64,000 bases of DNA from Massalongia carnosa (GCA_965645245.1 OZ287087.1:496001-560000); one strand, 5' to 3'; numbered from the stretch's first letter, positions 1 to 60,534 are shown. Notes: generated from the sequence alone by a model not told the origin. Numbers and translations: made by a program.

Positions 1-3000
1 CAGAGAATTGGAAGCTATTGCTCTGTTTTCTCACAGCAATGTAAGTCTACTGCTGTTATTTTTTCACAACCTACTTTTCCACACCTTACGCTAACGTCAA
101 GCTAGTATGAACGATGCTTTGTTAAGTCCTTCGGCTGGTATGATGATAGTGACAGCATATTTATTACTATGGAGTACCTTTCATATGGTGATTTGCATAA
201 GTACCTCAGTTCACCGCTACCAGAGAAGGAAGGACGGCATATCGTTTTTCAGATCCTCGAAGGCTTACAATTCATGCATGATAAAGGGTTCGCTCACAGA
301 GATTTAAAGCCAGCTGTAAGCCTAGCTACATGCATCAATATAATCAGAAACTTAGCTAATACTCTAAGTAATACAGAACATACTAGTTGTGGACAAAGGC
401 CCAGAGTGGTGGGTCAAGATCGCAGACTTTGGAGTCAGCAAGCGGGCAACAGAGGGACTTACAGCATTAAGAACCCAAAGAGGCACACCTGCTTTTATGG
501 CACCAGAAGTACTTGGCTTTATTCAATTGAACGACGAATCAAATGATTCGTATACAAACGCTGTTGATATCTGGTCTCTAAGTGTTATAACATTCTTCAT
601 ACTCACCGGCGAGATTCTTTTCAAAGACCCGCGCCGTCTAGGTCAGTATGTTGCGGGCAACTTTAAATTTCCTTTGAATGTCTTGCTTGTAAACAAAGTA
701 AGCAGACAGGGATGCGACTTCTTAAAAAGCTCAATGGCGTCAAAGTCTGAGGATCGTCCAAGGGCTAATGAATGTTTACAACATTCGTGGTTGGATTTTC
801 TTATAGAAGACGCGGCTCCTGACACTCCAAGGTATTAATTCTTATAGATGGAGACTGAAAATTATTATAATATCTTATAATAATAATGTTGTAGTGTTGC
901 TGATATCTTTGCAGAAAAATCAATGTTACAAAGCCAATGTCAACACCGCTAGACTGTTCAGATCCTGAGCCCTCTGCTAGTTGGAGCACTCAAGACTCAA
1001 TTTCGGCCTACGAGACGCATAGCTCTACGGGCGTGCTTACTAAAAAGACTTTGTCTACTTCTAAGGAAGCAGTAGCACCTTCAAAATCAGAACCAGCGAC
1101 TCAAATCTATTGGCATATGGCAAGCATCGTCAAGGGTCATTTGGGTTCTGTTCGGGCGGTGGCATTCTCGCCAGACGGGAAGCAGATCGCGTCCGCATCG
1201 GGGGACACGACGATCAGGCTCTGGGACTCGGCCACGGGGGCTTCGCGCAACATCCTCAAGGGTCATTTGGCTTCTGTTCGGGCGGTGGCATTCTCGCCAG
1301 ACGGGAAGCAGATCGCGTCCGCATCGGGGGACACGACGATCAGGCTCTGGGACTCGGCCACGGGGGCTTCGCGCAACATCCTCAAGGGTCATTCGGGTTA
1401 TGTTCGGGCGGTGGCATTCTCGCCAGACGGGAAGCAGATCGCGTCCGCATCGGGGGACACAACGATCAGGCTCTGGGACTCGGCCACGGGGGCTTCGCGC
1501 AACATCCTCAAGGGTCATTCGGGTGATGTTCGGGCGGTGGCATTCTCGCCAGACGGGAAGCAGATCGCGTCCGCATCGGGGGACACGACGATCAGGCTCT
1601 GGGACTCGGCCACGGGGGCTTCGCGCAACATCCTCAAGGGTCATTCGGATTATGTTCAGGCGGTGGCATTCTCGCCAGACGGGAAGCAGATCGCGTCCGC
1701 ATCGTGGGACAATACGATCAGGCTCTGGGACTCGGCCACGGGGGCTTCGCGCAACATCCTCAAGGGTCATTCGGGTGATGTTGAGGCGGTGGCATTCTCG
1801 CCAGACGGGAAGCAGATCGCGTCCGCATCGAAGGACACAACGATCAGGCTCTGGGACTCGGCCACGGGGGCTTCGCGCAACACCCTCAAGGGTCATTCGG
1901 GTGCAATTTTCGCGGTGGCATTCTCGCCGGACGGGAAGCAGATCGCGTCCGCATCGCGGGACACGACGATCATGCTCTGGGACTCGGCCACGGGCGTGCT
2001 TGCTGAAAAGACTTTGTATGCTTCTAAGGAAGCAGTAGCACCTTCAAAATCAGAACCAGCAACTCAAATCTATTGGCATATGGCAAGCATCCTCAAGGGT
2101 CATTCGGATGTGGTTGAGGCGGTGGCGTTCTCGCCAGACGGGAAGCAGATCGCGTCCGCATCGGGAGACACGACGATCAGGCTCTGGGACTCGGCCACGG
2201 GGGCTTCGCGCAACATCCTCGACGGTCATTCGGGTGGGGTTCGGGCGATGGCGTTCTCGCCAGACGGGAAGCAGATCGCGTCCGCATCGATGGACACGAC
2301 GATCAGGCTCTGGGACTCGGCCACGGGGGCTTCGCGCAACATCCTCAAGGGTCATTCGCATGTGGTTGAGGCAGTGGCGTTCTCGCCAGACGGGAAGCAG
2401 ATCGCGTCCGCATCGTGGGACACGACGATCAGGCTCTGGGACTCGGCCACGGGGGCTTCGCGCAACATCCTCAAGGGTCATTCGGGTGATGTTGAGGCGG
2501 TGGCGTTCTCGCCAGACGGGAAGCAGATCGCGTCCGCATCGTGGGACAATACGATCAGGCTCTGGGACTCGGCCACGGGGGCTTCGCGCAACATCCTCGA
2601 CGGTCATTCGCATGGGGTTGGGGCGGTGGCGTTCTCGCCAGACGGGAAGCAGATCGCGTCCGCATCGTGGGACATGACGATCAGGCTCTGGGACTCGGCC
2701 ACGGGGGCTTCGCGCAACATCCTCAAGGGTCATTCGCATGGGGTTGGGGCGGTGGCGTTCTCGCCAGACGGGAAGCAGATCGCGTCCGCATCGTGGGACA
2801 ATACGATCAGGCTCTGGGACTCGGCCACGGGGGCTTCGCGCAACATCCTCGAGGGTCATTCGCATGTGGTTAGGGCGGTGGCGTTCTCGCCAGACGGGAA
2901 GCAGATTGCGTCCGCATCGAAGGACAATACGATCAGGCTCTGGGACTCGGCCACGGGGGCTTCGCGCAACATCCTCGACGGTCATTCGCATGTGGTTGGG

Positions 3001-3063
3001 GCGGTGGCGTTCTCGCCAGACGGGAAGCAGATCGCGTCACATCCTCAAGGGTCATTCGGGTAG
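1..3063 (+). CDS. Ser/Thr kinase-WD40 (high-internal-conservation repeats) fusion, copy 1; 5' end lies outside the window
   Basis: Exons <1-40, 106-315, 377-831, 915-3063 with GT..AG introns and CTAAC/CTAAT/CTGAT branch sites splice in frame: HRDLKPA|NILV, DFG, APE, then a linker, 7 WD repeats, a duplicated linker, 7 more repeats and a broken repeat. A ~56-nt deletion at 3038/3039 frameshifts the last repeat (out-of-frame remnant to ~3190). Confidence 0.88.
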
Positions 3064-3147: not shown

Positions 3148-4328
3148 CTGGGCTCGGCTACCGGGGCGGCGTAATAAGTTTTTCACATAGAAATTATTAC
3201 GACCTCCATCCCCACCCACCTCCATCGCCCTTTACGTCCTTATATACCATTTTAATCATTGGATTATTAATTCCTGCTTCAAAGAATGTCGCTCTGCTTT
3301 GAAATCTAAGCTACTTCGAAATTCATGTCCTGAAATGTACTTTGCTTTGAAATACACTTTGCTTTGAAATCCTATGTCACGGCGTATAACGACCTCGCGG
3401 TTAAATAAGCTTTACCATTAAGTTAACCGACCTATTAGCCTTGTAGGACGAAAAGGCACAAATCTGTAGTGAGAAACTTCAGTGCTTATTCTACTACGTG
3501 TACGATAGGGGCACATTAATCAGAAAACGACAAGAGTATAAACGAAAAGAGAAAAAAACAACCCTTCCAAAAACGCAGAACAAAGAACGTAGCTTCATGC
3601 GACATCACTACATCACAAACCAAATCCTGTTCCGCTGCCATCAAAACGAGACGAATATGCACATCTACGGCGGACGGTAAATACCAAACCGCCATAACGA
3701 AATTCTTGAGTTTCGAATCGCGACATTGCGACGAAACAACAACGTACATTTATAATTCCACGCTTTCTTCTCTTCCCATTTATTCCTCTCTATTATATAA
3801 AGTTAGTATAGTTCAATGATGGGACTTCGTACGATCTGAAACGTACTCTTCAACCTTGTCTGATATGCTTAAAGCGTCAACCTGCGCTGCCGCTAACTCT
3901 CGAGACAACTGAACATCAGGGTTGTCTTCTACAGAAGACAACGAGACGGTTGTCTCAATTGTACGACGCTCTGACGCAGACGCAGACGACGAAAGAGGGA
4001 GTGCCACATGAGAGAACTGTTGCGTTAAGGGAGGAATAGGTCTGACGATCGCGTACACTCCGTCTATGATGATGATGATGATAAATTCTTACACCGATAT
4101 GTCACCGGCCGAAGGCCGTCCCATGCGGGCGTGGTTCTATATGACTATTGTACATAGGAAAACCTTTTAAGGAATAAAAACCTAGTAACCAAAATTATCG
4201 CCTGCGGGATCCCCATGACCCCTCAGTGTACCTAATAACGTGTATCTGTGAGGTCCTTGAAAGAAAACGGAAAAGAACGAAAGAAAAGGGGAGGAAGTCA
4301 AACATTTCAAATGCTGTGTCGACGGGAA

Positions 4329-5776
4329 CTATCCGTACAGCATGGTCGCTGCAATTGAATACTGTTTTAGTATATCTGCCCGCATTAACCATGCTGTCAG
4401 CTTTTTCAATTTTGCGGAATTTTCAATTATCGTGCGATAATTGTTAGTTTTCACTTGATTAAATAATTCATTTCTTCCGTCTATCAGCTGACAGTGCATG
4501 ATGACGTGTTTGGCCGTCTGCCTTGGCCATCCACATATGCACGCCGGTGAGTTTACATTGGGTACCCTTCGGTTGAAAAGAAAGTTGGCTAGCCCGATTT
4601 TCTCCGTGCGAATTTGCGTTGCTAGTGAACTCTCCGCTTTTGCCAAATTGCTGTGAATTTTTAATCTCTTTTTGTCAAGCGAAGCTTGTTGAGCCTCGGT
4701 GGGGAGTGGAATGCGATTTTGATAAGTCGCCCATGTTGACTTCCATATTTTCATACGATGCTCCATGAGCCGCGTATAATGTGCCCGTTGGGCCGTTCGC
4801 GCTTCTCTCAGCTCCTTGAGATATTCTGGACTGGCCTCGTACCACGGGGGCGCGGAAGGCGGTAATCTGATGGCGGCCTCTCCATTTAAAATTGCCTTGG
4901 CCCATGTGTGTTTCAGTTCTCCGGGTGTTGGCGGCGGAGTTTTTCTTCGACCCGCTCTTTCCCGTAGCTTATTAGCTATTATCTTGCATGCGGAGTTAGC
5001 GAGTGCTTTTTGCCCCGTGATTCGTAGTCGATATCTGGCTTTAGCCTGTAGTTGATCCAAATACACATCTATTGGGGCTATGTGTGTTTCTGCCTCCAGC
5101 ACCGGTATCAGGGTAGCCTTGAACGCTCCGGCGACTGTGCGTAGGCATCTGTTCTGAATGACCACCAATTTGGACGTTATAGATTTATTTCTATTTACGT
5201 CTTTCGGGGTGTGCCAGACGATTGAACCATATGTCATGGCTGGCCGCACCACCGCCGTGTATACTTGCCTGGCCCTAGCGAACGAAGCTCCCCAGGTAGA
5301 CGTGGAAATTTTTGTTAAGGCCATGCTCTGCTTGACCATCTTCTCCTGCGTTTTCCGTATGTGAGCACCCCACTTAAGTTTGGTATCTATTTGAAGACCG
5401 AGTATTCTTATATCCGCTTTTGGTTTGATTAGGCTGTTTTCTATATTAATAGTAGCCGTCATATCAAATTTCTTTGGATTTCTAGATAAATGAATAAGCT
5501 CGTACTTAGTCGGAGCAAATAAGGATCCGTGCCGTAGAGCCAATCTTTCACATTCTCTGTGAATTCTTTCTAGCGTTCTGCAATTTTCTTGCGTGCTTTT
5601 CCCACATGCTAGTACATTGATGTCATCGACGAATCCGAGTCCGCTCGTTTTCGTGCCGGGCCTGTTACATATGTCTAGTAAATCCGCATTGTAGAACAAA
5701 TACAGAATGGGAGAGATGGGTGAACCTTGCGGAATTCCGGTTCTCGCATCAAACTCGTCGGTGGTTCGTCGGTTGA
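4329..5776 (-). pseudogene. Tad1-like LINE ORF2 C-terminal part (RT end + Cys/His knuckle), 5'-truncated
   Basis: GIPQGSPISPILYLFYNADL, GFVDD, and CICGWPRQTAKHVIMHC motifs. Confidence 0.9.
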
Positions 5777-6918
5777 CTAAGAATGATAAAATAGAGTTGA
5801 CATCTCCTTCGTGAAGTCTCTATCCCAGTTTTCGTTCATCTCACTGGTGCGTTTTACGGCCCAAGACTATTGATGAATTCTACGATTGGGGTGAACGACG
5901 TCCCTTTCGCCCAGGTCAAACCCAGTTTACTCCTTAAGCATATATCAAGGGCGAGTCTAGCCGTAGCCCATGCGCCGGCTAACCGACGGGGTCTCGTTAC
6001 GAGCGAGATAGACATTCCCTGCTCTATATACACCGACATGCGCATACTGTCCTCTCGGGATATGCAGACGGTCTCCGTACGGTGGCCGCCATTGCATACC
6101 ACGCCTCACGGGTTTATTACGCCCACTTCGCGTTATTCATAAAGGTCTCCCGTTTATGAACCGACCATGTCTCGCAGGGATTTCGACCACTATGCTCCTG
6201 ACCAGGCAGTATAGTATCGATTTTCCGTCCCTACTAACCAAAACGAGTCGAGGACAACTCGGAGGGGTGCTCGTTTGAAATTCGTCTACTAGCTCAGGGC
6301 CTAGACTGTTATCAATTAACGGGTTCCTCGTACATTGCCCTCTTCTTGTCCCAAGGGTGTCCTATTTGATGACTAGGTTGCCTCCACCATCCCCGGTACG
6401 ACTCCGGTTCGGGCCGTGTTGCTCACGGTAGCCATCAATCGGATGGTTTTCATAACCCAAATCCCTTGTATCGTGTAGGGTGTGACCCTACACTATGTGT
6501 CTATATGTTTTATTTCTTTCAGCCGGAGGCTCCCTGTTGTAGACGAAGGAGACCCGTGTGATAGACATAGCTGACCCGTGTCGTACGTCTTTAGCTCTCA
6601 GCCGATGACTGCATGAAAGGACTTGAACCTTTAAGAGTATGACCGAACGTTGTTAACGAGGTCTATGAAAATCTTATTAACGAGGTCTTCGAGAACAATA
6701 TTAACGAAGTTCCGCTGAACTCTTTTCATTCGTTTTATGATCCATCGAGGTCTACCTGTGTCAAATCCACACCATGCCCGTGTCAAAATACATTATTTTC
6801 AGCTGATGACTGCTAGAAAGGACTTGAACCTCTAAAAATATGTACTCCGATATTAACGGGGTGCAGATCTTTCTTAACGAGCCCCCGCAGAACCCCCTTC
6901 ACAGGGACGTGTTATTGA

Positions 6919-7075
6919 TTTGTGACTGTGTTTTTTGTGACTGTGTGTTTTGTGACTGTGTGTTTTATGACTGTGTGTTTGTGACTGTATGTTTGTGACT
7001 GTGTGCTTTGTGACTGTGTGCTTTGTGACTGTGTGCTTTGTATAACGTGTGATTGATGACTATGTGTTTTGTAAC
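6919..7075. repeat. Degenerate (tgtgactgtgtgt..)n minisatellite inside the ncRNA-like segment; also ~21870-21980 and ~59958-60115
   Basis: Direct reading of the sequence. Confidence 0.9.
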
Positions 7076-7528
7076 TCTCTGTTTTCCTCGATTTTATTTA
7101 ACAGGCCGGGCCTATTAAATGGGATATTGTTATTCTGCTCCGAGATGGAGTTTTCTTGAGGTGACAGCATTCGCCCCGGTGCCTTTACGCGTTCTGTTGA
7201 TCCCAGCTGATTACTGCATGGGGAGACTTGAACTCTCAGGAGCTAGAACGCGTGTCGACTGTGCCCGGGTGGGGGATGATGCGGCTCCTTTGGTCCACAT
7301 CTTCTTCCAGCTGATGACTGCATGAAGGGACTTGAACCCTTAGAAGCATGGTGCAGGGACGCGCGCATTCTACCCCCGGCGGTTGGCCTTCGTATCCTCT
7401 TCCGTACGTACGTCTCCGACGCGTGTGAACGCGTTAAATTAGCATTGTTTTGATGCGAAGAGATAGGAGCAAATCTATAAGTTTGACGGTCGCCCCACGG
7501 TGAGGCCTTTGGCGTCTCCGTGGTGAGG

Positions 7529-7641
7529 ACCGATGGTCCAATGGTGTAGAAGGAGGAGGACCGATGGTGTAGAAGGAGGAGGACCGATGGTGTAGAAGGA
7601 GGAGGATCGATTGTGTAGAAGGAGGAGGACCGATGGTGTAG
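7529..7641. repeat. 23-bp tandem repeat gaccgatggtgtagaaggaggag (~4 copies)
   Basis: Direct reading; retrocopy B is 5'-truncated within this repeat. Confidence 0.85.
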
Positions 7642-15871: not shown

Positions 15872-17839
15872 TTAGTCATCATTTTCATCTCGTCGCCGCT
15901 TCCAAAACCCCCCCGTCGCCGCCTCATCTTTCAGCTCTTGCAAGGCCTCCTCCACCTCCTGTCTTCTGATTAGGCCAGTCAATTTCTCCAGCCAGCCAAG
16001 CCATCTCTCTTTTTGAGGATTTCTTTCCTCAGCTGTCCAATCAGCGGTGTGCTCCATAACTTCGTAGAATTTGTCTTTTATAGTGTCTAAAACCTCCCTC
16101 ATCTGCAGCATATGACGATCAGGTTCCTCGATATCTTCGTGACGTTCAATATTCAGTCTAGCCGACGTTTCATACACTTCGAAGCCGCTATCTTCAAACA
16201 TCTCGGCCCAAGCCAACCAATCGGACTGCTGAAACGTCTCGAAGACGATATGATATTGCCATAGATGCCTGCATGGAAGTTGATATTGTCGATAAAATCA
16301 ACAATCTACAGGACATGTCAGCTCATCTGGCATTTCACCTGCCGGTGCTTCACCGTCTGCTATGCTTTTAGCAGCTAGCTTCTATTGATCGACTATAAGC
16401 TTTTGCACTGGAAAGGGAAATTTTCGTAGATAAGGGCATTCCTGGCATTCGGCCGTGCTAGTAGTACGAAAGCTAGCTTTTTCAGCGCGAGCTCTATTTT
16501 CCCATTGATCCCCTACGCGAATCACATGATTTGCAGCCCCCGTCAACGAAAAAGTCATGAAATCCGCTTTACCTATTATACTAATTAATGTGGCGAATGA
16601 AGCTTTAAAAATATGACGATCTTACCATCTGCATGCTTTTTAATGGATGCATGCCAAGATTCAACCGGATTAGTGGTCATGCATTGCATCAATAAGCATG
16701 AATGCTGACGGGCATAATTAGCCCATTGAGACTTAGTCAACATCCATTCTCGTTCTATATATTGACGTTTTTCTTCAGGGGCTGCTTTTAAAGCTTTTTT
16801 GATACTGTCATCGCATTCGAGCTCGGTTTTCATGAAATATAGAGCATCATATAGATGCTTTTTGGCATTTTGACATCTGGCACCACTAAGTTTTCGATTC
16901 AACGTACGCTCTGAATGGGTGCGACAAAGAAAATGTGAAACCTCTATCTCCCCTGCTTTCAGGCCTTGAAAGGCAAGGCTGACGCCTCGTTGCTCGGCTG
17001 CAGAATCATCAGTGAGGATGTAACGAAGTCTCCATGCCCTAGACCATTGTTTGATTTGACGAAGAAATTCTCCTATGATATCACCGTCTTCGTTGCTAGC
17101 TAGCATATGAGCTCCAGGAATCCAGCTTCCATATTCGTCGCGAATCATCAGGGTAAATAAATTCCATTTCAGATGATTAGTATTATGAGTGCTATCAATC
17201 AAAGTCAAATGACCACGTTTCATCAAAATTTTCAATCTAGACCTTTTTACAAATGCTATAGCGTTATGATTTTTCTCCATCAACTGCACGACTTATTTCA
17301 AGCTTTGCAGCTAAAACGTCTTCGCCCAATACTTGCAAAGCATCAAAACAATCCTTCAATTGATCAACCCAGGCCTCTTTAGCCCCCAATACTCGTGCAT
17401 CAGGATGCGCTCTTTTGAAATCAATGCTAGCATTGTGAACGGCCTTGAGGTTAAAATGCGAGCCCCCTGCGTCTTTCAAGGTTTCAGAATTTCCCCGCCA
17501 TTTAATGCCTTGCATATTTCGATTGACGACGGCCGGGATAGGATTTTTGAATCCGTTTTTTCGTCATCGCCCCTGTATGATTATGCACCCAGATGTTGTC
17601 CACAAACGGCCAGAATTGTGCATATTCATCCGCCGTCAAATCTACTCTGCATGCAGCTGAAATGCTTGCTGACGAATCAATAACAGATTGGGTGGAAGAG
17701 ACAACAAGGTGGAAAGCGGAAGCGGAGCGGAGGAAGCTGGTCCTCGGGCGACAGTCAGTTGACTGTTGACGTCTTGATTGACGGCGTCTTGACTATCAAG
17801 GTCGCTTTCGGGTTTGGTGGCATCGAAATATGAAGACAT
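15872..17839 (-). pseudogene. MULE transposase (MULE DDE + SWIM), frameshifted
   Basis: LIDSTHNTN, ILTDDSAAE, FLCRTH, TTNPVESWH motifs and a YQLPCRH SWIM remnant; broken into several ORFs. Confidence 0.85.
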
Positions 17840-18396: not shown

Positions 18397-20278
18397 ATGC
18401 CACCTATTTCAGACCTTGTGCAGCTTTCAAAGCTCGAGACTCAATTCCACTCTGATCCGGAATATACGCAACACGTCCAGTACGTTTCTGGAAGTACGGC
18501 TAGACAAAGAAAAGTTTGCATGGAGGAAAAATGGATGAGAGAAAGGATGCTAGTTTCGGAATCGTCTGGTTAGAGCGGTGTATTCAAGGGAACAGTGAAG
18601 GGAAAGTACGAGCCGTAAAGAAGGTCCGAAAACTTGAGTCAAGCGATTATTACAGAGAATTGGAAGCTATTGCTCTGTTTTCTCACAGCAATGTAAGTCT
18701 ACTGCTGTGATTTTTTCACAATACACGTTTTCACACTTTAAGCTAACGTCAAGCTAGTACGAACGATGCTTTGTCAAGTCCTTCGGCTGGTATGATGATA
18801 GCGACAGCATATTCATTACTATGGAGTACCTTTCATATGGTGATTTGCACAAGTACCTCGGTTCACCGCTACCAGAGAAGGAAGGACAGCATATCGTTTT
18901 TCAGATTCTTGAAGGCTTACAATTCATGCATGATAAAGGGTTCGCTCACAGAGATTTAAAGCCAGCTGTAAGCCTAGCTACATGCATAAATAAATCAAAA
19001 ACATTACCTAATACTCCAAGTAATACAGAACATACTAGTTGTGTGCAAAGGCCCAGATTGGTGGGTCAAGATCGCAGACTTTGGAGTCAGCAAGCGGGCA
19101 ACAGAGGGACTTACAGCATTGAGAACCCAAAGAGGCACACCTGCTTTTACGGCACCAGAAGTACTCGGCTTGATTCAATCGAACGACGAATCAAATGATT
19201 CGTATACAAACGCTGTCGATATCTGGTCTCTAAGTGTTATCACATTCTTCATACTCACCGGCGAGATTCTTTTGAAAGACCTGCGCCGTCTAGGTCAGTA
19301 TGTTGCGGGCAACTTTAAATTTCCTTTGGATGTCTTGCTTGTAAACAAAGTAAGCGGACAGGGATGCGAATTCTTAAAAAGCTCAATGGCGTCAAAATCT
19401 GAGGATCGTCCAAGGGCTAATGAATGTTTACAACATTCGTGGTTGGATTTTCTTATAGAAGAGGCGGCTCCCGACACTCCAAGGTATTACTTCTTATAGA
19501 TGGAGACAGAAAATTATTATAATATCTTATAATAATAATATTGTAGTGTTGCTGATATCTTTGCAGAAAAATCAATGTTACAAAGCCAATGTCAACACCG
19601 CTGGACTGTTCAGATCCTGAGCCCTCTGCTAATTGGAGCATTCAAGACTCAATCTCGGCCTACGAGACGTATAGCTCTACGGGCGTGCTTACTAAAAAGA
19701 CTTTATCTACTTCCAAGGAAGCAGTAGCATCTTCAAAATCAGAACCAGCGACTCAAATCTATTGGCATATGGCAAGCATCCTCAAGGGTCATTCGGATTC
19801 TGTTCAGGCGGTGGCATTCTCGCCAGACGGGAAGCAGATCGCGTCTGCATCGTGGGACACGACGATTAGGCTCTGGGACTCGGCCACGGGGGCTTCGCGC
19901 AACATCCTCAAGGGTCATTCGGGTGGGATTCGTGCGGTGGCATTCTCGCCAGACGGGAAGCAGATCGCGTCTGCATCGAGCGACACGACGATCAGGCTCT
20001 GGGACTCGGCCACGGGGGCTTCGCGCAACATCGTCAAGGGTCATTCGGATTCTGTTCAGGCGGTGGCATTCTCGCCAGACGGGAAGCAGATCGCGTCCGC
20101 ATCGTGGGACACGACGATCAGGCTCTGGGACTCGGCCACGAGGGCTTCGCGCAACATCCTCAAGGGTCATTCGGATTCTGTTCAGGCGGTGGCATTCTCG
20201 CCAGACGGGAAGCAGATCGCGTCCGCAACGTGGGACATGACGATCAGGCTCTGGGACTCGGCCACATGGGCGGCGTAA
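18397..20278 (+). pseudogene. Kinase-WD40 gene copy 2, frameshifted; 4 WD repeats
   Basis: Same exon structure as copy 3. A 10-nt deletion (gaagtggcag) at 18553/18554 removes the GSGSFG loop and shifts the frame. Confidence 0.88.
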
Positions 20279-20845: not shown

Positions 20846-23800
20846 TTGCCTCAGTACCTTAGACGCGCCCGGCTAAGCCCCTTCGGCCCTTCGGGTTAGC
20901 CTTACAGAACGTTAAGCCCCTTCGGGTTAACAGGCTGACTACGCAGCACATCTGTAGCAAGTCTGAGCCCAAAACTCAAGATTACGGTCAGATATGGCTT
21001 AAGGATCATGACAAGAACGATTTCGACCTTATAGAATAACGTCACAACTTCATTGTCTTCATGTTTGTAACGTCGCCGTCGCTTGATATGATTATGATCA
21101 ATGTATTTTTGATTTTTTCGATATAAATTTCAATCTTTATTTATGTTTATAACGTGCAGAGCAATTATACATACATCTTGTTATTTTCGTTAAGTCGATT
21201 CTCGATTTCTATGCGAAGTGCAATCAGATTGCCCAACATGAACTTTACAACGAACAGGAAATTCAGGGAACTTTTTATACAAATTCTACTTGAATTCTTT
21301 CGAAGAAATAACCCGTGTCAAACGAAAAAGCAAGACGTCAATATGTCGAAAAATCGTAATAATACACGATTTATTACGAATATCTGGATCGGTCCTCCTC
21401 CTTCTACACCATCGGTCCTCACCACGGAGACGCCAAAGGCCTCACCGTGGAGCGACCGACAAACATAGATTTGCTCCTATCTTTTCGCATCAAAACAATG
21501 CTAATTTAACGCGTTCACACGCGTCGCAGACGTACGTACGGAAGAGGATACGAAGGCCAACCGCCGGGGGGTAGAATGCGCGCGTCCCTGCACCATGCTT
21601 CTTAGGGTTCAAGTCCCTTCATGCAGTCATCAGCTGGAAGAAGATGTGGACCAAAGGAGCCGCATCATCCTCCACCCGGGCACAATCGACACGCGTTCTA
21701 GCTTCTGAGAGTTCAAGTCTCCCCATGCAGTTATCAGCTGGGATCTACAGAACGCGTAAAGGCACCGGGGCGAATGCTGTCACCTCAAGAAAACTCCATC
21801 TCGGAGCAGAATAACAATATCCCATTTAATAGGCCCGGCCTGTTAAATAAAATCGAGGAAAAAACAGAGTCACAAAACACATAGTCATCAATCACACGTT
21901 GTACAAAGCACACAGTCACAAACATACAGTCACAAACACACAGTCAAAACACACACAGTCACAAAAAACACAGTTACAAATCAATAACACGTCCCTGTGA
22001 AGGGGGTTCTGCGGTGGCTCGTTAAGACAGATCTGCACCCCGTTAATATCGGCGTACATATTTTTAGAGGTTCAAGTCCTTTCTAGCAGTAATCAGCTGA
22101 AAATGATGCATTTTAACACGGGCATGGTGTGGATTTGACACAGGTAGACCTCGATGGATCACAAAACGAATGAAAAGAGTTCAGCGGAACTTCGTTAATA
22201 TTGTTCTCGAAGACCTCGTTAATAAGGTTTTCATAGACCTCGTTAACAACGTTCAGTCATACTCTTAAAGGTTCAAGTCCTTTCATGCAGTCATCGGCTG
22301 AGAGCTAAAGACGTACGACACGGGTCAGCTATGTCTGTCACACGGGTCTCCTTCGTCTACAACACGGAGCCCTCCGGCTGAAAGAAATAAAACATATAGA
22401 CACATAGTGTAGGGTCACACCCTACACGATACAAGGGATTTGGGTTATGAAAACCATCCGATTGATGGCTACCGTGAGCAACACGGCCCGAACCGGAGTC
22501 GTACCGGGGATGGTGGAGGCAACCTAGTCTTCAAATAGGACACCCTTGGGACAAGAAGAGGGCAATGTACGAGGAACCCGTTAATTGATAACAGTCTAGG
22601 CCCTGAGCTAATAGACGAATTTCAAACGAGCACCCCTCCGAGTTGTCCTCGACTCGTTTTGGTTAGTAGGGACGGAAAATCGATACTATACTGCCTGGTC
22701 AGGAGCATAGTGGTCGAAATCCCTGCGAGACATGGTCGGTTCATAAACGGAAGACCTTTATGAATAACGCGAAGTGGGCGTAATAAACCCGTGAGGCGTG
22801 GTATGCAATGGCGGCCACCGTAAGGAGACCGTCTGCATAGCCCGAGAGGACAGTATGCGCATGTCGGTGTATATAGAGCAGGGAATGTCTATCTCGCTCG
22901 TAACGAGACCCCGTCGGTTAGCCGGCGCATGGGCTACGGCTAGACTCGCCCTTGATATATGCTTAAGGAGTAAACTGGGTTTGACCTGGGCGAAAGGGAC
23001 GTCGTTCACCCCAATCGTAGAATTCATCAATAATCTTGGGCCGTAAAACGCTCCAGTTAGATGAACGAAAACTGGGATTGAGACTTCACGAAGGAGATGT
23101 CAACTCTATTTTATCATTCTTAGCCCGGCGTGGCACCGCGAAGCTACCGTTGCGGCAACGGCCCGACACAAGCAGATGCAAACAATCAAGGCACGACCAA
23201 TGAAGGTCTGGAACGACTCGTGGTGGGCATATCAAAATCGCGTCATCGAACCCTCCATAGCACAATCAGTCCCACTGAGCAAAAAACGGCTGAAAATACA
23301 CACGCAGCTAAAAAAGGCAGAAAGCGCTCTAACAACTCAAATCCGCACTGGCAAAATCGGGTTAGCTGACTTCCTCTACAAGCGACGGGTACCCTCCGTC
23401 ACCTCACCGGCCTGCTCATGTGGCTGGCACAGACAAACTCCAGAACATGTAATCATGTTCTGCAGACTTATTGACAATAGAGAACAGATGTTTCGCGCCG
23501 CCGGCACGAGCGACTATCAGCAGCTGACCAAATCATCAAAAACTCTGAAGATACTAACTGCTTGGCTAATGAAAACAGGGTTATTGAATCAATTCTCACT
23601 AGCATCAACATTATTGTAAAATCAACAATAGTTGAACCTTTCTTTCTTTCTTCTCTTTTCACAAGGCATTACAGTTCCCACACGTCTTTTGCACTGCGTC
23701 TCCCGCCCGACGTCGACCCGTAGTCACATCGGACGGGTATCAAGGGACATGGTTTTTACACCTGTGAAAGGTTTTCCATGTAACATAACTTAGATAGCTT

Positions 23801-24018
23801 TGCCCGCATGGGCCGGCCTACGGCCGGTGTCATATCGGAGTATGAATACATCATCATCATCATTATTACGAATATCTGACCGTAATATTTAGTTTTGCGC
23901 TCAGACGTGCTATCGCAGCCACGTTAGTCAGCTGGGACGCTAATCCGAAGGAGCTTAGCGAAATAGGCTAACCCGGAGGGGCTTAGACGGCCCACGCACG
24001 TCTGAGGTACTGAGGCAA
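20846..24018. mobile_element. Non-autonomous foldback/TIR element (~0.68 kb without its insert)
   Basis: ~150-bp imperfect inverted ends (ttgcctcagtacc..ttacggtcagatat and atatctgaccgtaa..ggtactgaggcaa); TSD cgaccgag. Confidence 0.75.
21387..23862 (+). mobile_element. Chimeric retrocopy B: same ncRNA-like segment (21387-23123) fused to the 3' end of a different Tad1-like LINE (23124-23862)
   Basis: 16-bp TSD ttattacgaatatctg at 21371-21386 and 23863-23878; (ATC)n tail; LINE ORF remnant 23176-23619 (TQIRTGKIGL, CSCGWHRQTPEHVIMFC). Confidence 0.88.
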
Positions 24019-25229
24019 CGACCGAGGTTCTTTTACCTCCTGCTTACTAATTTCCAGATTAGGCAATCATATGCTATATGCGAAAAGCTTCAGATATCGG
24101 CACGACTTCGGCAACTACGAGGAGGCAAAGGTATGCCGCAAAAATGCTACATTTCGGAGGCAATTCAGCTGTTCATGATCACTTAGTGTCTCGGTGTTTC
24201 CGGTCAGCATTAAGGTGTATTTTGCCCAGCTGAAAAGGTTCAAAGGAAGCAGGTTTATGCATTTGATATATGCCGAAATGGAGGCCCTCAAGCAGTATAA
24301 AGAGACGGTGATTCCTCATGTAATTTAACTATTCAGTCGTTCAGAATTCAGTTCAGCAGATAGCTAAATTTGGAGTATCTTCACTGGAAATACGGAGTAT
24401 CTGCATCACGTTTGCCAAGCACTTCTCTTTATGACAATCATGCTATTATACCTACTGTGACGAAGCGAGATAGTGAATAGATTTCTACCATTGCGCCACC
24501 TGTCCTTCCCGACCAAAAGGCACAATACTTAGTCCGCAGACCAAGCTCTATTCTACTATAACTGGGACTCCTGCTATGTTCGCTGTAGGTCCTGCCGTCC
24601 GCACCACGCTTGGTCGAACCGTTACACCTACAAAGTGAATCTATAATTTCATATATAGCACCGTTTGGTCCCTGGTGAGCAGATATTGGCCACTTCAGCG
24701 AGTTTCTAAGAATCATAGAAGTGTAGAAGTATGAGGTTATTCATTTTGTTATTTTCATGATTCTCTGACTCTCTACTTCTAAGGTCTAAAATCATCCAAG
24801 TCCAGGATGCGTGCCGCTTACCGGAATAGGTCTACTGTTATACGTGACCATAATAATGTCTAGCGCCATAGGTGTCACGGTGCGAGGTCAGGTAGGAATT
24901 CAGGTGGTGCAAACGTGTTACTTGATTGTCTAGCTAGGTGGACAAGACGTTCGACAAGGAGAAAAGAAACAGAAAATCCAACGTGGGCGAGTATAAGACT
25001 CTGGCGAACGGAACTAGTCCCAATCCAGCCGTTGATCCAATTTCCCCAAGTCCCTAGCATGAAACTATCGCCATGACACTATTGATAGTCGGAACACTTA
25101 CCTTTGAACCGGATTAAGCTTAGTTCCTTTCGGATCGGCTAACCGGCTAGTGCTTCGTTCAAGCAGCTAAGGTTGATTCAATGAACTAACTGGCAGGTGC
25201 CCAGTCACTCCATGACACCAGCTCCCCTT

Positions 25230-28200
25230 TTAGGTCCGAGCTCCGCGAGGACCACCGGGCTTGGTAGGCCTCAGTCGATGAAAGTCTTCCAATAGGTCGG
25301 AGCAGTGGGTGACGTCCTTAGCTTCGGTCCAGTCGGGTGCGTCCCAACCAGTCCACTTGATTAGGTACTGTAAACGTCTTCGGAAGAAACGAGAGTCCAA
25401 AATTTCCTCGACCTCCCACTCCGTTTCACCTTCAACTTCGACAGGAGGGGAAGGAGCGGGTATGTGGCCGACGTGGGGGTGTTGAGAGACAGGTTCTAGG
25501 AGGGAGACATGGAACACAGGATGAACGTTCATGGAGGCGGGAAGGTCTAACTCGTATGCGTACTTGCTGACAACTTTCTTTATAGTGAACCTTCCAAGCT
25601 TTTTCCAGTCCAACTTTCGCGATGGCCGTTTGGTCTTTATATGTCGAGCGTCCAACCATACCTCGTCACCGATCTGAAACATAGGAGCCGGGGTCCTACT
25701 TGCATTAGCAGATGCTTCGTAACGTGCTTGAGCTAGGCGCATTTCGTCGCCGAGGTGTTCACTGATACTTTCCATTTTGAAAGCAAATTCGTCAGCGCTA
25801 ATGACATGGGCATTAGGGGAGTCGCGATGAACAGGTTCAAAACCAAGACGGGGGTGGAAACCATAGTTGGCAAGGAATGGGCTGACGGACGTTGTCTCGG
25901 AGTCGGAGTTATTACTAGCGAATTCAGCCATGGGTAGCCAGTCGGTCCAATCATCTTGTTGATAAGACACATAGCTTCTGAGGTATTGTTCCATGACTGC
26001 ATTATAACGTTCCGTTTGACCGTCAGTTTCCGGGTGAAACGACGTAGATAACCGACTGTTGATCCTTAGTCGTTCACATAGTGCTTTCCAAAAGTCAGCT
26101 ATGAACTGGCCTCCTCGATCCGACACAATGGAGTCGGGTAGGCCATGAAGTTTCCAGACATGTTCAACGTATAGTCTAGCCAAGGCCTTAGCGTCGGTGG
26201 TTTCTCTGCAGGGAATAAAGTGCTTCATCTTGGTTAGTCGACAAACAACGCTTAGCACGGCGTTTTTATCACTACTTTCGGGTAGGCCGGTAACGAAATC
26301 CATAGATATGTCCTTCCATCGTTGTTGGGGAACGGGCAAAGGTTTTAACACTCCGTACTTGGCATGATGGGAAGCCTTACTGCGAGAGCATGTATGACAG
26401 TGTTGAACATAGCGAGCAATGAACTGATGATATCGGGGCCAGTAGTAGTCTCGCGCCATCAGACTAAATGTTTTAGATCTGCCTGGATGGCCGGCGACTG
26501 GGCTGTCGTGATATTCCTTGCATAGTCTCATTTTTAGTTCATGCCAATCAGGGACATAAAGCCTTTCCTTGTAGTATAGTCTTCCATTCCTGTCTTCGCA
26601 TTCGGCTAGGGTGATGTCCTTGCTGTGTCGAGCACCGTTTCGGAGAAGGGTCAGGATTTTGTTAGGCGTGGGGTCATGTTCATATCCTAGATCAATGAGT
26701 TCGTCTATAGATTTGTCTTCCGAGTCGAGGGCAGGGGCGAGATTCGATGGTTCAATGGCGATGTCAGGTGCGATGTCAGGTGCGATGTCAGGTTCAGAGT
26801 CGGACACGTCAGTCACACGAGGCACGTTGTTAGCATGAAGTTCAAAATTATGCGGTTTTAATACCACCTGATTCTGATGTTCTAGTCTCACGTCCCCTTC
26901 TTTAGGAAGATCTCCTGATCTTCTAGTCAAAGCGTCAGGTTTTCCGCCTAATTTGCCGGGTCGATACGTGATTTTGAAGTCGAAACGTGAGAGATATTCT
27001 GCCCAGCGGGCCTGTCGCCTGCTTAGCTGCTTGGTGGTGGTGAAATACTCCAGGTTTTTATGATCAGTGATTACCTTGACCGGGTAGGCGGCTCCCTGAA
27101 GTTCTGGTCTCCATTCCTCGAAGGCACGTATTATGGCTAACAGTTCTTTATCATAAATCTCGTAATTGCACTCTGCCGGTGACAAACGTCGCGAGAAAAA
27201 GGCTACGGGGCGAAGGACTCCATCGTCATCATACTGTGAGAGGACTCCGGCATTGACATAATCGGAAGAGTCAGTTTCAACCACGCTTTCCTTATCAGGG
27301 TCAAAATGCAGCAAAACAAGGTCACTAGTGAACATAGCCTTCAGATCTTCGAAGGCCTTGGCGCAGTCATCGGTCCATACGAATGGTATCTTCTTTTTTG
27401 ACATAGCAGTCAATGGTCCGGCTATACGAGAGAAACCCTTGACAAATCGACGATAGAAATTCGCGAATCCTATGAAGGCCTGCACGTCCTTGAGGTTCTC
27501 GGGGGTGTTCCAATTCTGAATAGTTTCAATTTTCTTAGGGTCCATTCTTATACCATCTTTGGATATTATTAACCCTAAGTAAATGGTCTCCGTGACATGG
27601 AATTCACACTTTGAGATGTCGAGTTGTAATCCGGCCTTTTGTAAGGCCATCAGCACTTTTCTCACATGATCCTTGTGTTCTTTCAGGGAATTGCTGTAAA
27701 TCAATATGTCATCGATGTACGCGGTGCAGAAGATGTCTAGATATTCACGAAGCACATCATTAATGTACTCCTGAAACGAAGATGGGGCTCCACAGAGTCC
27801 AAACGGCATGACGAGATATTCATATAATCCATAGCGTGTTCGAAAGGCAGTCTTCCATTCCTCTCCATGAGCTACACGGAGACGGTTGAAGGCCGCGACA
27901 ATATCCAACTTAGTAAAGATAACTGCTTTACTCAAGCGGTCCAAGGTTTCTCTGATCAAAGGTAGGGGGTATCTGTTCTTGATCGTTATCGCATTTAATG
28001 CTCTGTAATCAACACAAAAACGCAGGCCTCCGCCTGGTTTCCTAACGAACAACACCGGGGACGCAGCAGGGGAAGAACTGGACCGAATAAAACCCTTCTT
28101 CAGGTTTTCCGTCAGATACTTCTGTAGAACTAACAGTTCATCTCGACTCATGCCATATAACGGGCCATACGTGGGTTCCTTTCCATTCATCAACGGAATT

Positions 28201-29222
28201 TTATGATCATGGCTACGTCGCCCCGGAAGTTTATCAGCTTCTTTCTTGGAAAATACATCAAGAAATTCATGATATTCCGATGGCAACACTGTAGCGGGAT
28301 CAACTTCCGGCTTAGGGTTCAAGGAATGTTCAATGTCTCTCATGTTCACGGTAAAGAGTTCACACTCCTTCTTCTTCGCTAGACGGGTAAAGGGGGCTGC
28401 CCCTATCATACATATGCTCAATGGTGGATTCTTATGGGTCGGCGGCGGAACGAGCAGGGACGGGACGGGTGAAGTCCAAGGCAAGATAGGCGAAACGGGC
28501 AAGGTCGGAGGCAAGATGGGCGAGGGGGCGGCGATCGCGATCGATTTTGAATTAACGCGCCGATTTAACCGGCCGGGCCTGTTAAATCTAACCGCTTCGG
28601 AACTAGGGTCTTCGGTGATTGCAGCAGTCAAGTCGGGACTAGCGCTGCTTTCAACGACGAGGGGTTTTTCAGCGCGGAGTTCTGGAACGTTGGTTATGCC
28701 GATGACCGTGTTTGACTCGGAGTTGTCAAGACAGTGCTGACGGCAGTAAGGTGAGTTGAAAGTGAGAGAGTTCATTGCCCATCGTATGCTGACGTCGTGA
28801 ATTTGCAGCCATTTAATGCCGAGAACGATGGGATAGTGACCGAGGCTGGTGACGAGAAGGTTAGCGGGTTCGGAATGCGAGGCGATGTCAAGGTTCAGAC
28901 GGGCGAGGTGAGTAAGCTTTCCAGACGACACGGGACGGCCGTCTGCGAGTTCAAGAATACGAGGGTTCTTCATGAGGGCGAGGGGTATGCGATGATGGTG
29001 CGCGAACGAGGAATCAACAAAGGCAAATCCAGATGCTCCACAATCAATCAATGCATAAGTCTTGATTCTGATTGTTCCTATGGAAACAACAAGAGACACA
29101 ACCAAATGCCTTCCATCCAAATATTCTTCGGATAGAGGTTCTTTGGACAAGGAAAATGCCGAAATCGAAATAGTTTCTTTTTGTCTTCGGCCGCGACTTA
29201 GGCCGAAGACTGAACTTTTCCC
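25230..29222 (-). CDS. pol: Gypsy Pol (PR-RT-RNaseH-IN-chromodomain), reached by -1 frameshift
   Basis: ALIDCGA, YIDDILI, ETDSSD, HHCC/DDE integrase, and WEVEEILD..YLIKWTGW chromodomain. Confidence 0.95.
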   Translation of the reverse strand, partial: GKSSVFGLSRGRRQKETISISAFSLSKEPLSEEYLDGRHLVVSLVVSIGTIRIKTYALIDCGASGFAFVDSSFAHHHRIPLALMKNPRILELADGRPVSSGKLTHLARLNLDIASHSEPANLLVTSLGHYPIVLGIKWLQIHDVSIRWAMNSLTFNSPYCRQHCLDNSESNTVIGITNVPELRAEKPLVVESSASPDLTAAITEDPSSEAVRFNRPGRLNRRVNSKSIAIAAPSPILPPTLPVSPILPWTSPVPSLLVPPPTHKNPPLSICMIGAAPFTRLAKKKECELFTVNMRDIEHSLNPKPEVDPATVLPSEYHEFLDVFSKKEADKLPGRRSHDHKIPLMNGKEPTYGPLYGMSRDELLVLQKYLTENLKKGFIRSSSSPAASPVLFVRKPGGGLRFCVDYRALNAITIKNRYPLPLIRETLDRLSKAVIFTKLDIVAAFNRLRVAHGEEWKTAFRTRYGLYEYLVMPFGLCGAPSSFQEYINDVLREYLDIFCTAYIDDILIYSNSLKEHKDHVRKVLMALQKAGLQLDISKCEFHVTETIYLGLIISKDGIRMDPKKIETIQNWNTPENLKDVQAFIGFANFYRRFVKGFSRIAGPLTAMSKKKIPFVWTDDCAKAFEDLKAMFTSDLVLLHFDPDKESVVETDSSDYVNAGVLSQYDDDGVLRPVAFFSRRLSPAECNYEIYDKELLAIIRAFEEWRPELQGAAYPVKVITDHKNLEYFTTTKQLSRRQARWAEYLSRFDFKITYRPGKLGGKPDALTRRSGDLPKEGDVRLEHQNQVVLKPHNFELHANNVPRVTDVSDSEPDIAPDIAPDIAIEPSNLAPALDSEDKSIDELIDLGYEHDPTPNKILTLLRNGARHSKDITLAECEDRNGRLYYKERLYVPDWHELKMRLCKEYHDSPVAGHPGRSKTFSLMARDYYWPRYHQFIARYVQHCHTCSRSKASHHAKYGVLKPLPVPQQRWKDISMDFVTGLPESSDKNAVLSVVCRLTKMKHFIPCRETTDAKALARLYVEHVWKLHGLPDSIVSDRGGQFIADFWKALCERLRINSRLSTSFHPETDGQTERYNAVMEQYLRSYVSYQQDDWTDWLPMAEFASNNSDSETTSVSPFLANYGFHPRLGFEPVHRDSPNAHVISADEFAFKMESISEHLGDEMRLAQARYEASANASRTPAPMFQIGDEVWLDARHIKTKRPSRKLDWKKLGRFTIKKVVSKYAYELDLPASMNVHPVFHVSLLEPVSQHPHVGHIPAPSPPVEVEGETEWEVEEILDSRFFRRRLQYLIKWTGWDAPDWTEAKDVTHCSDLLEDFHRLRPTKPGGPRGART
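29183..29222 (-). promoter_or_regulatory. -1 ribosomal frameshift signal
   Basis: G GGA AAA in the gag frame, 5-nt spacer, 10-bp stem gtcttcggcc/ggccgaagac; pol is in the -1 frame. Confidence 0.85.
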
Positions 29223-52088: not shown

Positions 52089-52313
52089 CTAAGAATGATA
52101 AAATAGAGTTGACATCTCCTTCGTGAAGTCTCTATCCTAGTTTTCGTTCATCTCACTGGTGCGTTTTACGGCCTAAGACTATTGATGAATTCTACGATTG
52201 GGGTGAACGACGTCCCTTTCGCCCAGGTCAAACCCAGTTTACTGTTGGAATACTCGCTTAGCCCCATTAGTTCTAGCTCAGCCCTGCAGGCTGCCATGAC
52301 TGCTATGTATAAG

Positions 52314-58145: not shown

Positions 58146-60534
58146 ATAAGCAGTCACCTCCGTAGTAATTTCAACATTATGCCGTCAACTGTTTATTTAA
58201 CAGGTTATGAGACCCGGGTTTGTGCTTTGCGCCCCTCCGACGGCATCCTTCATGCATAGACTACGTACTATCATGTCGTATCAAGAAGATGATGAGGTGA
58301 AAGTTCAGACGTGGAAAGCGCGAAAACGAAGCGGAAACGACATCGAAAGGGATGAGAAACGAAGCGGAAACTAAGCGGAAACGTCATCGAAAGTGGTGTA
58401 CGTACGAAACGTGCTGAGGAGGACATCTACAACGGGCGGTGCCTCGAAGACTTCACATCTTGCATTACTGGTCAGATCAGCAAGGGGAGATAAAAGCCCT
58501 GCGATCAGGCCACCAACGTCAATGGTCTGCGGGAAAATGTCTCACAGAGACATCGAGAAAAGCCCTGCTCAGGCCATCAATAAAACACGTCCATAGTACT
58601 CTTCCCATCCACCCATACACTCACAAAAGCTACGTTTCGAGAGATGGTTATGGGTTTAATGAGGCTACAAAGCAGGACAACAAAAGACATAAGAAAGAAC
58701 TACGTGCTTAGGGAAAATGGAGTCAGAGGGAGCTAGATTCGTTCCGCAAGGGGAGCGAATCGGACACAGCTGGATGAATCACTTCGCAAGGGGAGTGATA
58801 AAAGCTGGATAGTCTCAATTTTGGAGGCGAAAGGGGAGCCACGCTCGAAGGGGAGTGTTGGAATACTCGCTTAGCCCCATTAGTTCTAGCTCAGCCCTGT
58901 AGGCTGCCATGACTGCTATGTATAAGCAGTCACCTCCGTAGTAATTTCAACATTATGCCGTCAACTGTTTATTTAACAATATCAAGGGCGAGTCTAGCCG
59001 TAGCCCATGCGCCGGCGAACCGACGGGGTCTCGTTACGAGCGAGATAGACATTCCCTGCTCTATATACACCGACATGCGCATACTGTCCTCTCGGGCTAT
59101 GCAGACGGTCTCCGTACGGTGGCCGCCATTGCATACCACGCCTCACGGGTTTTTTACGCCCACTTCCCGTTATTCATAAAGGTCTCCCGTTTATGAACCG
59201 ACCATGTCTCGCAGGGATTTCGACCACTATGCTCCTGACCAGGCAGTATAGTATCGATTTTCCGTCCCTACTAACCAAAACGAGTCGAGGACAACTCGGA
59301 GGGGTGCTCGTTTGAAATTCGTCTATTAGCTCAGGGCCTAGACTGTTATCAATTAACGGGTTCCTCGTACATTGCCCTCTTCTTGTCCCAAGGGTGTCCT
59401 ATTTGATGACTAGGTTGCCTCCACCATCCCCGGTACGACTCCGGTTCGGGCCGTGTTGCTCACGGTAGCCATCAATCGGATGGTTTTCATAACCCAAATC
59501 CCTTGTATCGTGTAGGGTGTGACCCTACACTATGTGTCTATATGTTTTATTTCTTTCAGCCGGAGGGCTCCGTGTTGTAGACGAAGGAGACCTGTGTGAT
59601 AGACATAGCTGACCCGTGTCGTACGTCTTTAGCTCTCAGCCGATGACTGCATGAAAGGACTTGAACCTTTAAGAGTATGACCGAACGTTGTTAACGAGGT
59701 CTATGAAAATCTTATTAACGAGGTCTTCGAGAACAATATTAACGAAGTTCCGCTGAACTCTTTTCATTCGTTTTGTGATCCATCGAGGTCTACCCGTGTC
59801 AAATCCACACCATGCCCGTGTCAAAATACATTATTTTCAGCTGATGACTGCTAGAAAGGACTTGAACCTCTAAAAATATGTACTCCGATATTATCGGGGT
59901 GCAGATCTGTCTTAACGAGCCCCCGCAGAACCCCCTTCACAGGGACGTGTTATTGATTTGTGACTGTGTTTTTTGTGACTGTGTGTTTTGTGACTGTGTG
60001 TTTTGTGACTGTGTGTTTGTGACTGTATGTTTGTGACTGTGTGCTTTGTGACTGTGTGCTTTGTGACTGTGTGCTTTGTACAACGTGTGATTGATGACTA
60101 TGTGTTTTGTGACTCTCTGTTTTCCTCGATTTTATTTAACAGGCCGGGCCTATTAAATGGGATATTGTTATTCTGCTCCGAGATGGAGTTTTCTTGAGGT
60201 GACAGCATTCGTCCCGGTGCCTTTACGCGTTCTGTTGATCCCAGCTGATGACTGCATGGGGAGACTTGAACTCTCAGGAGCTAGAACGCGTGTCGACTGT
60301 GCCCGGGTGGGGGATGATGCGGCTCCTTTGGTCCACATCTTCTTCCAGCTGATGACTGCATGAAGGGACTTGAACCCTTAGAAGCATGGTGCAGGGACGC
60401 GCGCATTCTACCCCCGGCGGTTGGCCTTCGTATCCTCTTCCGTACGTACGTCTGCGACGCGTGTGAACGCGTTAAATTAGCATTGTTTTGATGCGAAGAG
60501 ATAGGAGCCAATCTATATGTTTGACGGTCGCCCC

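Follow-up and report, generated by a model that had tools for sequence, protein, structure and literature searches.

In Magnaporthe grisea, the elements named MINE join a full-length copy of WEIRD, a 1.1-kb non-coding RNA whose function is unknown, to a 5′-truncated copy (230–5461 nt) of the long interspersed nuclear element (LINE) MGL. They are flanked by duplications of 10–20 bp, no solo WEIRD copy was found, and the accessible text of the report explains them by template switching of the LINE enzyme and states that WEIRD lacks relatives in other genomes (PMC2104539). Here, we describe a comparable arrangement in a 64,000-nt stretch of Massalongia carnosa DNA (GCA_965645245.1, OZ287087.1:496001-560000; hereafter, the window), where a non-coding unit of about 1.8 kb, which we call X, is present in three copies (A, B and C). 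In copies A and B, X is followed in sense by 5′-truncated LINE sequence, and each copy of X carries four repeats of a three-way-junction module with a hairpin resembling the T-arm of a tRNA.

Like MINE, the X-LINE chimera has a long non-coding 5′ part with a constant 3′ end, fused directly and in sense to a variable 5′-truncated LINE, and the chimera of copy B is flanked by a target-site duplication of 14–16 bp, to be compared with the 10–20 bp given for MINE in the accessible text (PMC2104539). X differs from WEIRD, as described there, in its length (1.8 kb versus 1.1 kb) and in having relatives in 14 metagenome loci, and neither a T-loop module nor a conserved structure is mentioned for WEIRD in that text. 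Two published 20-nt WEIRD primers did not match at up to five mismatches, a comparison that covers these primers only. Template-switch chimeras of the U6-L1 type offer the same class of comparison for X-LINE as MINE does.

The four modules of copy A were located at the places named in an earlier note on this DNA (plus strand, 6595-7352) and recur in copies B and C, for a total of 12 of 12 window modules. In minus-strand sense, each module runs through a closing stem, a U, a 5-bp stem with the loop UUCAAGU, CAUG or CUAG, CAG-UCAUCAG-CUG and the other side of the closing stem. On the plus strand, the order per unit is closing stem, CAGCTGATGACTG, CATG or CTAG, 5-bp stem, ACTTGAA, complement of the 5-bp stem and closing stem. 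The three helices are referred to as P1 (the closing stem, approximately 9–10 bp and free in sequence), P2 (the 5-bp stem with an invariant closing G-C pair) and P3 (the CAG/CUG mini-hairpin with the loop UCAUCAG). The P2 stems were correctly quoted in the earlier note as AAAGG/CCUUU, AGAGG/CCUUU (one G-U pair), AAGGG/CCCUU and GAGAG/CUCCC (one A-C mismatch), and so was the closing stem of module 3, ACGCGUUCU/AGAACGCGU; as it also said, the closing stems of the four modules are unrelated to each other in sequence. The 9-mer GACTTGAAC occurs 12 times in the window, with 0.78 occurrences expected, and is found four times in each of the copies A, B and C. Since these copies are 94–98% alike, the modules amount to four independent paralogues. 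Compared with shuffled sequences, only module 3 folded better (z approximately −3.2), with z between −1.3 and +0.7 in the other three, and over 18 pairs, the four window modules contained 2 G-U and 4 A-C cells. Taken alone, the window thus provides suggestive but weak evidence.

Metagenome contigs were scanned with the pattern GATNACTGCWWGNNNNGACTTGAAC, which fixes the loops but leaves P1 entirely free, together with the four P2 pairs that vary. Fifteen loci were retrieved, 14 of which share the architecture, usually with two to four modules in tandem and with conserved flanks around the module, in sense GGGACUCGUUAAUACUGG upstream and UUCAACACGGGCAAAC downstream. The remaining locus, L014, was a chance match of the pattern and was rejected by the covariance model R1. 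No match to the pattern was found in viral contigs or in 185,579 prokaryote genomes. From these data, 31 distinct modules were aligned in the sense of the window minus strand (alignment A2; 18 pairs and 558 cells in P1, P2 and P3). Here, 83.2% of the cells pair, compared with 71.1% when columns are shuffled (reached in 0 of 500 shuffles) and 38.8–54.8% with slid partners, and both sides change in 15 of the 18 pairs (reached in 2 of 500 shuffles). P2 is 96.8% paired, with four of its five pairs covarying, and the innermost P1 pair (17-53) is UA in 14 modules, CG in 13 and UG in 4, being unpaired in none. RNAalifold, unaided, predicted the same junction. In the inner P1 and P2, 32 G-U cells against 4 A-C cells were counted in the sense of the window minus strand; pairing is therefore kept on one strand, which points to selection on the minus-sense RNA. 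Furthermore, across loci whose X blocks are only 68–76% identical, the module cores are 78–97% identical over 30–68 nt.

Addition of an outer helix, P0, to the 16 modules with conserved flanks (alignment A3) gave 90.1% of paired cells versus 81.5% after shuffling, with both sides changing in 16 of 23 pairs (0 of 500 shuffles). P0 (5 bp, CUCGU/ACGGG) encloses the motif in most relatives; in these 16 modules, 95% of its cells pair and one of its pairs covaries. It is formed by two short sense motifs, CUYGUUAA and ACACRGGC (seen in the window at 6640-6720 and in the loci), and its second pair is a conserved U-G. Both motifs are found at many places along X, in some cases enclosing a module and in others not. 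Where L004, L011 and L008 have a short loop on a homologous P0 hairpin of the X 3′ domain, L013 has a full module, which indicates that the junction is a modular apical domain. The earlier note had proposed an RNA motif under selection, a three-way junction that has a T-arm-like hairpin but lacks a cloverleaf and lies on what was called the transcript strand, and covariation in a larger alignment had been named beforehand as the point at which this proposal might fail. The motif passed this check, and both its nature and its strand are borne out by the 31 modules. We are highly confident that the motif is real at the RNA level.

The consensus of the tRNA T-loop is U-U-C-R-A-N-N. In the modules, G-UUCAAG and the closing C are present in 31 of 31 and the last U of the loop in 30 of 31 (it is missing in L002b), counts to be read with the search pattern in mind, which set part of the loop. 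As far as sequence goes, the module would qualify as a T-arm with a T-loop: it shares with the tRNA T-arm the 5-bp stem, the G-C pair that closes it without exception and the 7-nt loop UUCAAGU (30 of 31 modules). It is unlike a tRNA in that it has no cloverleaf, D-arm or anticodon arm, in that the partner loop UCAUCAG lacks GG, and in its topology, which is the mirror image of that of a tRNA, with the T-arm joining the 5′ strand of the closing stem. Membership of the tRNA class was rejected, as no cloverleaf was recognized by ARAGORN (0 tRNA genes in the window and in the 14 loci) or by the Rfam tRNA model (RF00005; no match at E<=10 over 5900-7600, nor at E<=5 in 6 loci). At the gathering level, Rfam found nothing in the window or in the 14 loci. 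In E-value mode, the window gave matches to a Streptococcus sRNA (6218-6261), a piece of HOXA11-AS, miRNAs and snR43, all of which were considered spurious, and 6 loci gave no match. By eye, no conserved pairing was seen between the J strand or other regions of X and either the T-loop or the P3 loop. With regard to the literature searched by sequence, a 14-mer from the P3 region had no match, and the T-arm 11-mer occurs in published papers whose titles, among the matches listed, do not concern this element; in titles and abstracts on tRNA-like or T-arm elements in fungal retrotransposons without long terminal repeats (LTRs), the motif is not reported.

Longer RNAs with tRNA-resembling elements include MALAT1, with its mascRNA, and short interspersed nuclear elements (SINEs) with tRNA-derived heads; the 5′ untranslated region (UTR) of mouse L1 holds tandem promoter monomers, and Alu SINEs carry the Alu domain of the signal recognition particle (SRP) RNA. 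X resembles the L1 monomers in having tandem units of approximately 100–200 nt at the 5′ end of a transcript that a LINE mobilises, and the SRP Alu domain in that a LINE parasite has taken over an element made of a closing helix and two hairpins. Unlike both, it shows covariation at the RNA level and not only sequence conservation; there is no sequence relation to either, nor any SRP match in Rfam. Helenus TRIMs have been described with tRNA-like LTRs (PMC10886601). With mascRNA, the SINE heads and, as far as the accessible text on it goes, Helenus, X shares a tRNA-resembling element within a longer non-coding or retroelement RNA. Those elements are, however, near-complete cloverleaves that act as RNase P/Z substrates or RNA polymerase III (Pol III) promoters, whereas only the T-arm of the X module is tRNA-like, and it is repeated two to four times and not removed from the copied RNA. 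A further element, megB1 of the Agaricomycetes, is termed ‘dimeric Alu-like’ in the accessible text of two reports (PMC10627285, PMC10033251); two megB1-flanking primers had no match in the window, a result that concerns these primers only.

X is about 1812 nt long and carries its two to four modules in tandem in its 5′ half, at least 820 nt from the 3′ end and approximately 230 nt from the 5′ end. Repeat matching gave spans of 5777-7565 for copy A, 21388-23123 (inverted) for copy B and 58973-60534 for copy C. Contigs from three other sequencing runs depart from the window sequence exactly at 5777 and those from two runs at 7588, which, together with the shared 3′ end, defines X as a discrete unit. 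X is non-coding, with stops in all frames, no codon periodicity and no open reading frame (ORF) kept across loci; the latter two observations ruled out a coding reading of its 3′ domain. A coding reading of the modules was also rejected, as the frame KGSSPFMQSSA has a stop in two of the four (by eye). The 3′-terminal 650–750 nt of X recur in the metagenome loci as blocks of 68–76% identity, and in seven sequences (the window and L004, L008, L009, L011, L013 and L015), the 3′ domain has 192 predicted pairs, 75 of them with a compensatory change. This domain contains the invariant stretches AUGCUUAAGGAGUAAAC, GACAUGGUCGG and AACGCGAAG, and no Rfam family matches it. Two simple repeats were seen in X: 23-nt tandem repeats (TACACCATCGGTCCTCCTCCTTC) form its sense 5′ end, with approximately 4.5 units in copy A (7528-7640) and 1.7 in copy B (21388-21425), and a microsatellite-like array of (TGTGACTGTGTGYTT)n with a unit of 12–15 nt lies between M2 and M3 (6900-7040) and is 45 nt shorter in copy B owing to two deletions. 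Telomerase RNA was dismissed as an identity for X, as no CCCTAA-type template was seen by eye on the sense strand.

The LINE part of copy A extends from the GIPQGSP/FVDD region of the reverse transcriptase through a C-terminal CCHC motif and a 3′ UTR to an (ATC)n tail near 4066. Its full-length relatives are proteins of 1120 aa with endonuclease and reverse-transcriptase domains, and the nearest protein-atlas cluster is eukaryotic, with Ascomycota as the commonest group. In addition, 57% of the sampled sequence words occur in a lichen metagenome run; as to the origin of the DNA, both observations are no more than hints. The 3′ end of X (...CATTCTTAG) falls at the same nucleotide in copies A/C and B, yet it is joined to different LINE sequences in A and B. 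A homologous end (...CTTGGC followed by 0–4 further nt) was found in the metagenome loci L003, L004, L009, L011 and L015; these ends differ by 0–3 nt and show no A-run. By contrast with this constant end, the LINE is entered in sense at variable residues of the 1120-aa ORF2, namely approximately 631 in window copy A, 683-685 in L009, 712 in L015, 715-717 in L004 and 969 in window copy B. The partner at the seven readable X 3′ junctions is ORF2 in five, an ORF with a CX2CX4HX4C motif in one (L011) and unassigned in one (L003). Pfam gave no family for the LINE-side ORF fragments of L003, L004, L009, L011, L012 and L015, so the zinc-knuckle reading of L011 relies on its motif. The duplication of 14–16 bp around copy B argues that target-primed reverse transcription inserted this chimera in one piece. 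Constant X ends, a variable 5′-truncated LINE in sense and, for copy B, a duplication together with a LINE tail are the features of chimeric retrocopies of the MINE type. The earlier suggestion that the motif lies within an RNA captured by a LINE is thus supported by the X ends and the LINE junctions, and the X-LINE chimeras were probably made by template switching. The coordinates of these features are compiled in Table 1.

Table 1. Positions of X, its modules and the associated LINE sequences in the window.
Feature	Position	Strand	Remarks
LINE 3′ part of copy A	4066..5776	-	5′-truncated ORF2 from about residue 631 of the 1120-aa relative, 3′ UTR, (ATC)n tail; in-sense fusion to X
X copy A	5777..7588	-	Sense 5′ end about 7588, additional 23-mer repeats to 7640; 3′ end 5777, where A/B homology stops
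X conserved structured 3′ domain	5777..6520	-	Identity blocks and predicted pairs
Module M1, copy A	6583..6649	-	P1 closing stem, P2 T-arm-like hairpin, P3 mini-hairpin; R1 62.4 bits
Module M2, copy A	6784..6850	-	R1 65.1 bits
Module M3, copy A	7188..7254	-	9-bp closing stem, A-C mismatch in P2; R1 56.7 bits
Module M4, copy A	7292..7359	-	R1 64.4 bits
Target-site duplication ATTACGAATATCTG, copy B 5′ side	21373..21386	.	Perfect direct repeat; 14 bp, 16 bp if TT is counted
X copy B	21387..23123	+	Homology to copy A; starts ATCGG directly after the target-site duplication
Modules M4, M3, M2 and M1, copy B	21585-21652, 21690-21756, 22049-22115, 22250-22316 (span 21585..22316)	+	9-mer and R1
LINE 3′ part of copy B	23124..23864	+	Diverged LINE from about ORF2 residue 969 (last ~150 residues), (ATC)n tail
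Target-site duplication, copy B 3′ side	23865..23878	.	Same direct repeat
X copy C, main part	58973..60534	-	Last 155 nt at 52089-52243, split off by a 6.7-kb nested insertion
Modules M1–M4, copy C	59621-59687, 59822-59888, 60226-60292, 60330-60397 (span 59621..60397)	-	9-mer and R1

The explanation that we favour as a whole, with evenly balanced confidence, is that of paralogous RNA junction modules in a LINE-captured X, serving to dock as mimics of the tRNA elbow. The LINE reverse transcriptase would jump from the LINE RNA to the 3′ end of X, leaving X fused in sense to a 5′-truncated LINE, and the resulting retrocopies would be inserted by target-primed reverse transcription, as proposed for MINE and WEIRD. 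The module may fold as a mimic of the ‘top half’ or elbow of a tRNA. In this fold, P1 would stack on P2, and the P3 loop would stand in for the D-loop by docking on the T-loop. The module could then dock a factor that recognizes T-arms (e.g., modifiers of the Pus4/Trm2 type, RNase P/Z, an exportin or the ribosome), and docking might aid the stability of the X RNA, its export or its meeting with the LINE machinery. Invariant loops on sequence-free stems are the signature of a recognition surface, which favours the elbow mimic; the docking function as such is put forward tentatively and with some doubt.

A role of the modules at the DNA level, with the modules and their flanks acting as promoter ‘monomers’ of a retroelement leader or as B-box/TFIIIC sites and the stems being incidental, would be compatible with an RNA role and is unlikely, in our view, as the explanation. 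It draws on the 11-mer GGTTCAAGTCC, which fits the B-box consensus, on the tandem arrangement of 2–4 units of approximately 110–200 bp near the 5′ end of a LINE-borne transcript and on flanks conserved in primary sequence (in sense, GGGACTCGTTAATACTGG upstream and TTCAACACGGGCAAAC downstream). Such a site, however, predicts neither the compensatory changes in P1 and P2, nor a closing stem that is free in sequence yet kept in pairing, nor the 32:4 excess of G-U over A-C cells on one strand. In addition, no A box was seen by eye, and the sense strand of X holds five runs of at least four T (nt 751, 801, 918, 1346 and 1798), which argue against a full-length Pol III transcript. On these grounds and given its 1812 nt, X was rejected as a SINE or a unit with a type-2 Pol III promoter. 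Of the Pol III B-box raised in the earlier note, the B-box-like 11-mer stands, but a B-box alone cannot explain the compensatory P1/P2 changes or the strand asymmetry. A neutral internal duplication, or a tRNA or SINE relic, in either case lacking a selected structure, would account for window copies that decay like their surroundings and for the unremarkable folding energies of three of the four modules; it is already disfavoured and looks very improbable, as the cores are better conserved than the surrounding X blocks and the stems change in a compensatory way.

The module might instead be a processing signal, i.e., a substrate of the RNase P/Z type at which X is cut from a longer transcript, or a new self-cleaving ribozyme. 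A T-arm-like hairpin stacked on a helix, loops as invariant as those of catalytic or enzyme-recognized cores and the need of some mechanism to form the discrete X ends would all agree with this, as would the antisense P3 loop, which reads CUGAUGA. Nevertheless, the retrocopies hold two to four uncut modules in a row, so the copied RNA was not cleaved there, and the modules lie far from either end of X. No Rfam ribozyme or tRNA model matched either strand at E<=10, and no ribozyme model matched in 6 loci. A hammerhead was rejected by inspection, since CUGAUGA occurs only as the antisense P3 loop and the GAAA element and the helix order are absent, and the module is the mirror image of the RNase P minihelix substrate; we regard cleavage at the module as improbable. 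Somewhat less remote, although still rather unlikely, is that X is the long 5′ UTR of the LINE itself, with the variable junctions arising by splicing or internal deletion and the modules being an element of the LINE leader. Every assignable X 3′ junction does join a LINE, and one contig has approximately 3.3 kb between the X 3′ end and a 35-nt LINE match, about the length of ORF1 plus the N-terminal half of ORF2. Against this, the same X end joins LINEs of two lineages that, in the C-terminal region they share, are only about half identical in protein (by eye) and have no DNA match; the X ends vary by 0–3 nt (CTTGGC followed by AGG, G, TAGG or C), unlike exact exon ends; and many contigs with full-length 1120-aa ORF2 relatives measure only 5.2–5.7 kb, which is weak evidence that there is little room for a 1.8-kb leader.

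Several observations weigh against elbow-mimicking modules in a LINE-captured X. Copy A has an (ATC)n tail, but no clear target-site duplication was found around it. In the contig just mentioned, of 8.2 kb, X is followed 3270 nt later by the 35-nt match to the LINE part of the window (5704-5738), a spacing that would also fit X as the leader of a nearly full-length LINE. As for the structure, the modules are related to each other, so the shuffle controls (0 or 2 of 500) overstate significance. P3 is nearly invariant, with 2 G-C swaps against 3 C-A mismatches in 31 modules, and is thereby the least-supported helix, and the outer P1 is only about 60% paired in A2, with more A-C (24) than G-U cells (19) and a register that varies between modules. 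In the window, three of the four modules fold no better than shuffled sequence, and the copies are decaying: besides the A-C mismatch of M3, one pair is lost in M4 of copy B, and the three copies do not agree in the P3 loop of M3. As decaying retrocopies, they may have no function at their present sites. Finally, the mirror topology means that enzymes requiring the acceptor/T-arm geometry may not accept the module, and docking is a function that we infer throughout.

The surroundings of the X copies are rich in repeats. A WD40 gene, presumably of the fungal NWD/HET-E kind, is present in three copies (937-3063, 19589-20278 and 47730-48811) with many near-identical 126-bp WD40 repeats and 14 WD40 stretches by Pfam; its copies A and C, together with the X-LINE chimera, belong to a segmental duplication. 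Two Copia-type LTR retrotransposons of 5.8 kb (52309-58145 and 36168-41997) are 99.3% identical, with LTRs of 232–237 bp and an intact ORF of 1686 aa, and one of them sits in the nested insertion of 6.7 kb by which X copy C is interrupted (between A-coordinates 5931 and 5934). Approximately 1 kb downstream of chimera B lies a Gypsy/Ty3-type LTR retrotransposon (24872-30736), in which 346-bp LTRs that are 100% identical and intact gag and pol ORFs suggest a recent insertion. A MULE transposase fragment (16585-17280, minus strand) and a weak protein-kinase-like ORF (44309-45334, minus strand) add to the repetitive character of the region.

LINE template-switch chimeras with a long non-coding 5′ partner were already known, described in one fungus as WEIRD/MINE in the accessible text of that report (PMC2104539). 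The present analysis adds that relatives of such an RNA occur in many environmental genomes and that its architecture is conserved and covarying. The repeated T-loop junction module with its invariant loops provides a concrete experimental handle, e.g., as bait for a binding partner, and a covariance model would allow the annotation of X elements in fungal genomes, where they are probably now found among unclassified repeats. On a bolder and, in our estimation, unlikely reading, X would be a member of a widespread, previously unrecognized class of large structured fungal RNAs, including WEIRD, that offer their 3′ end to jumping LINE reverse transcriptases and whose tandem T-loop junctions hijack the tRNA-handling machinery (export, modification, RNase P or ribosomes on LINE mRNA) to reach the LINE ribonucleoprotein. 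If true, this would add a new strategy to those of retroelement parasitism, with a parallel in the use of SRP9/14 by Alu.

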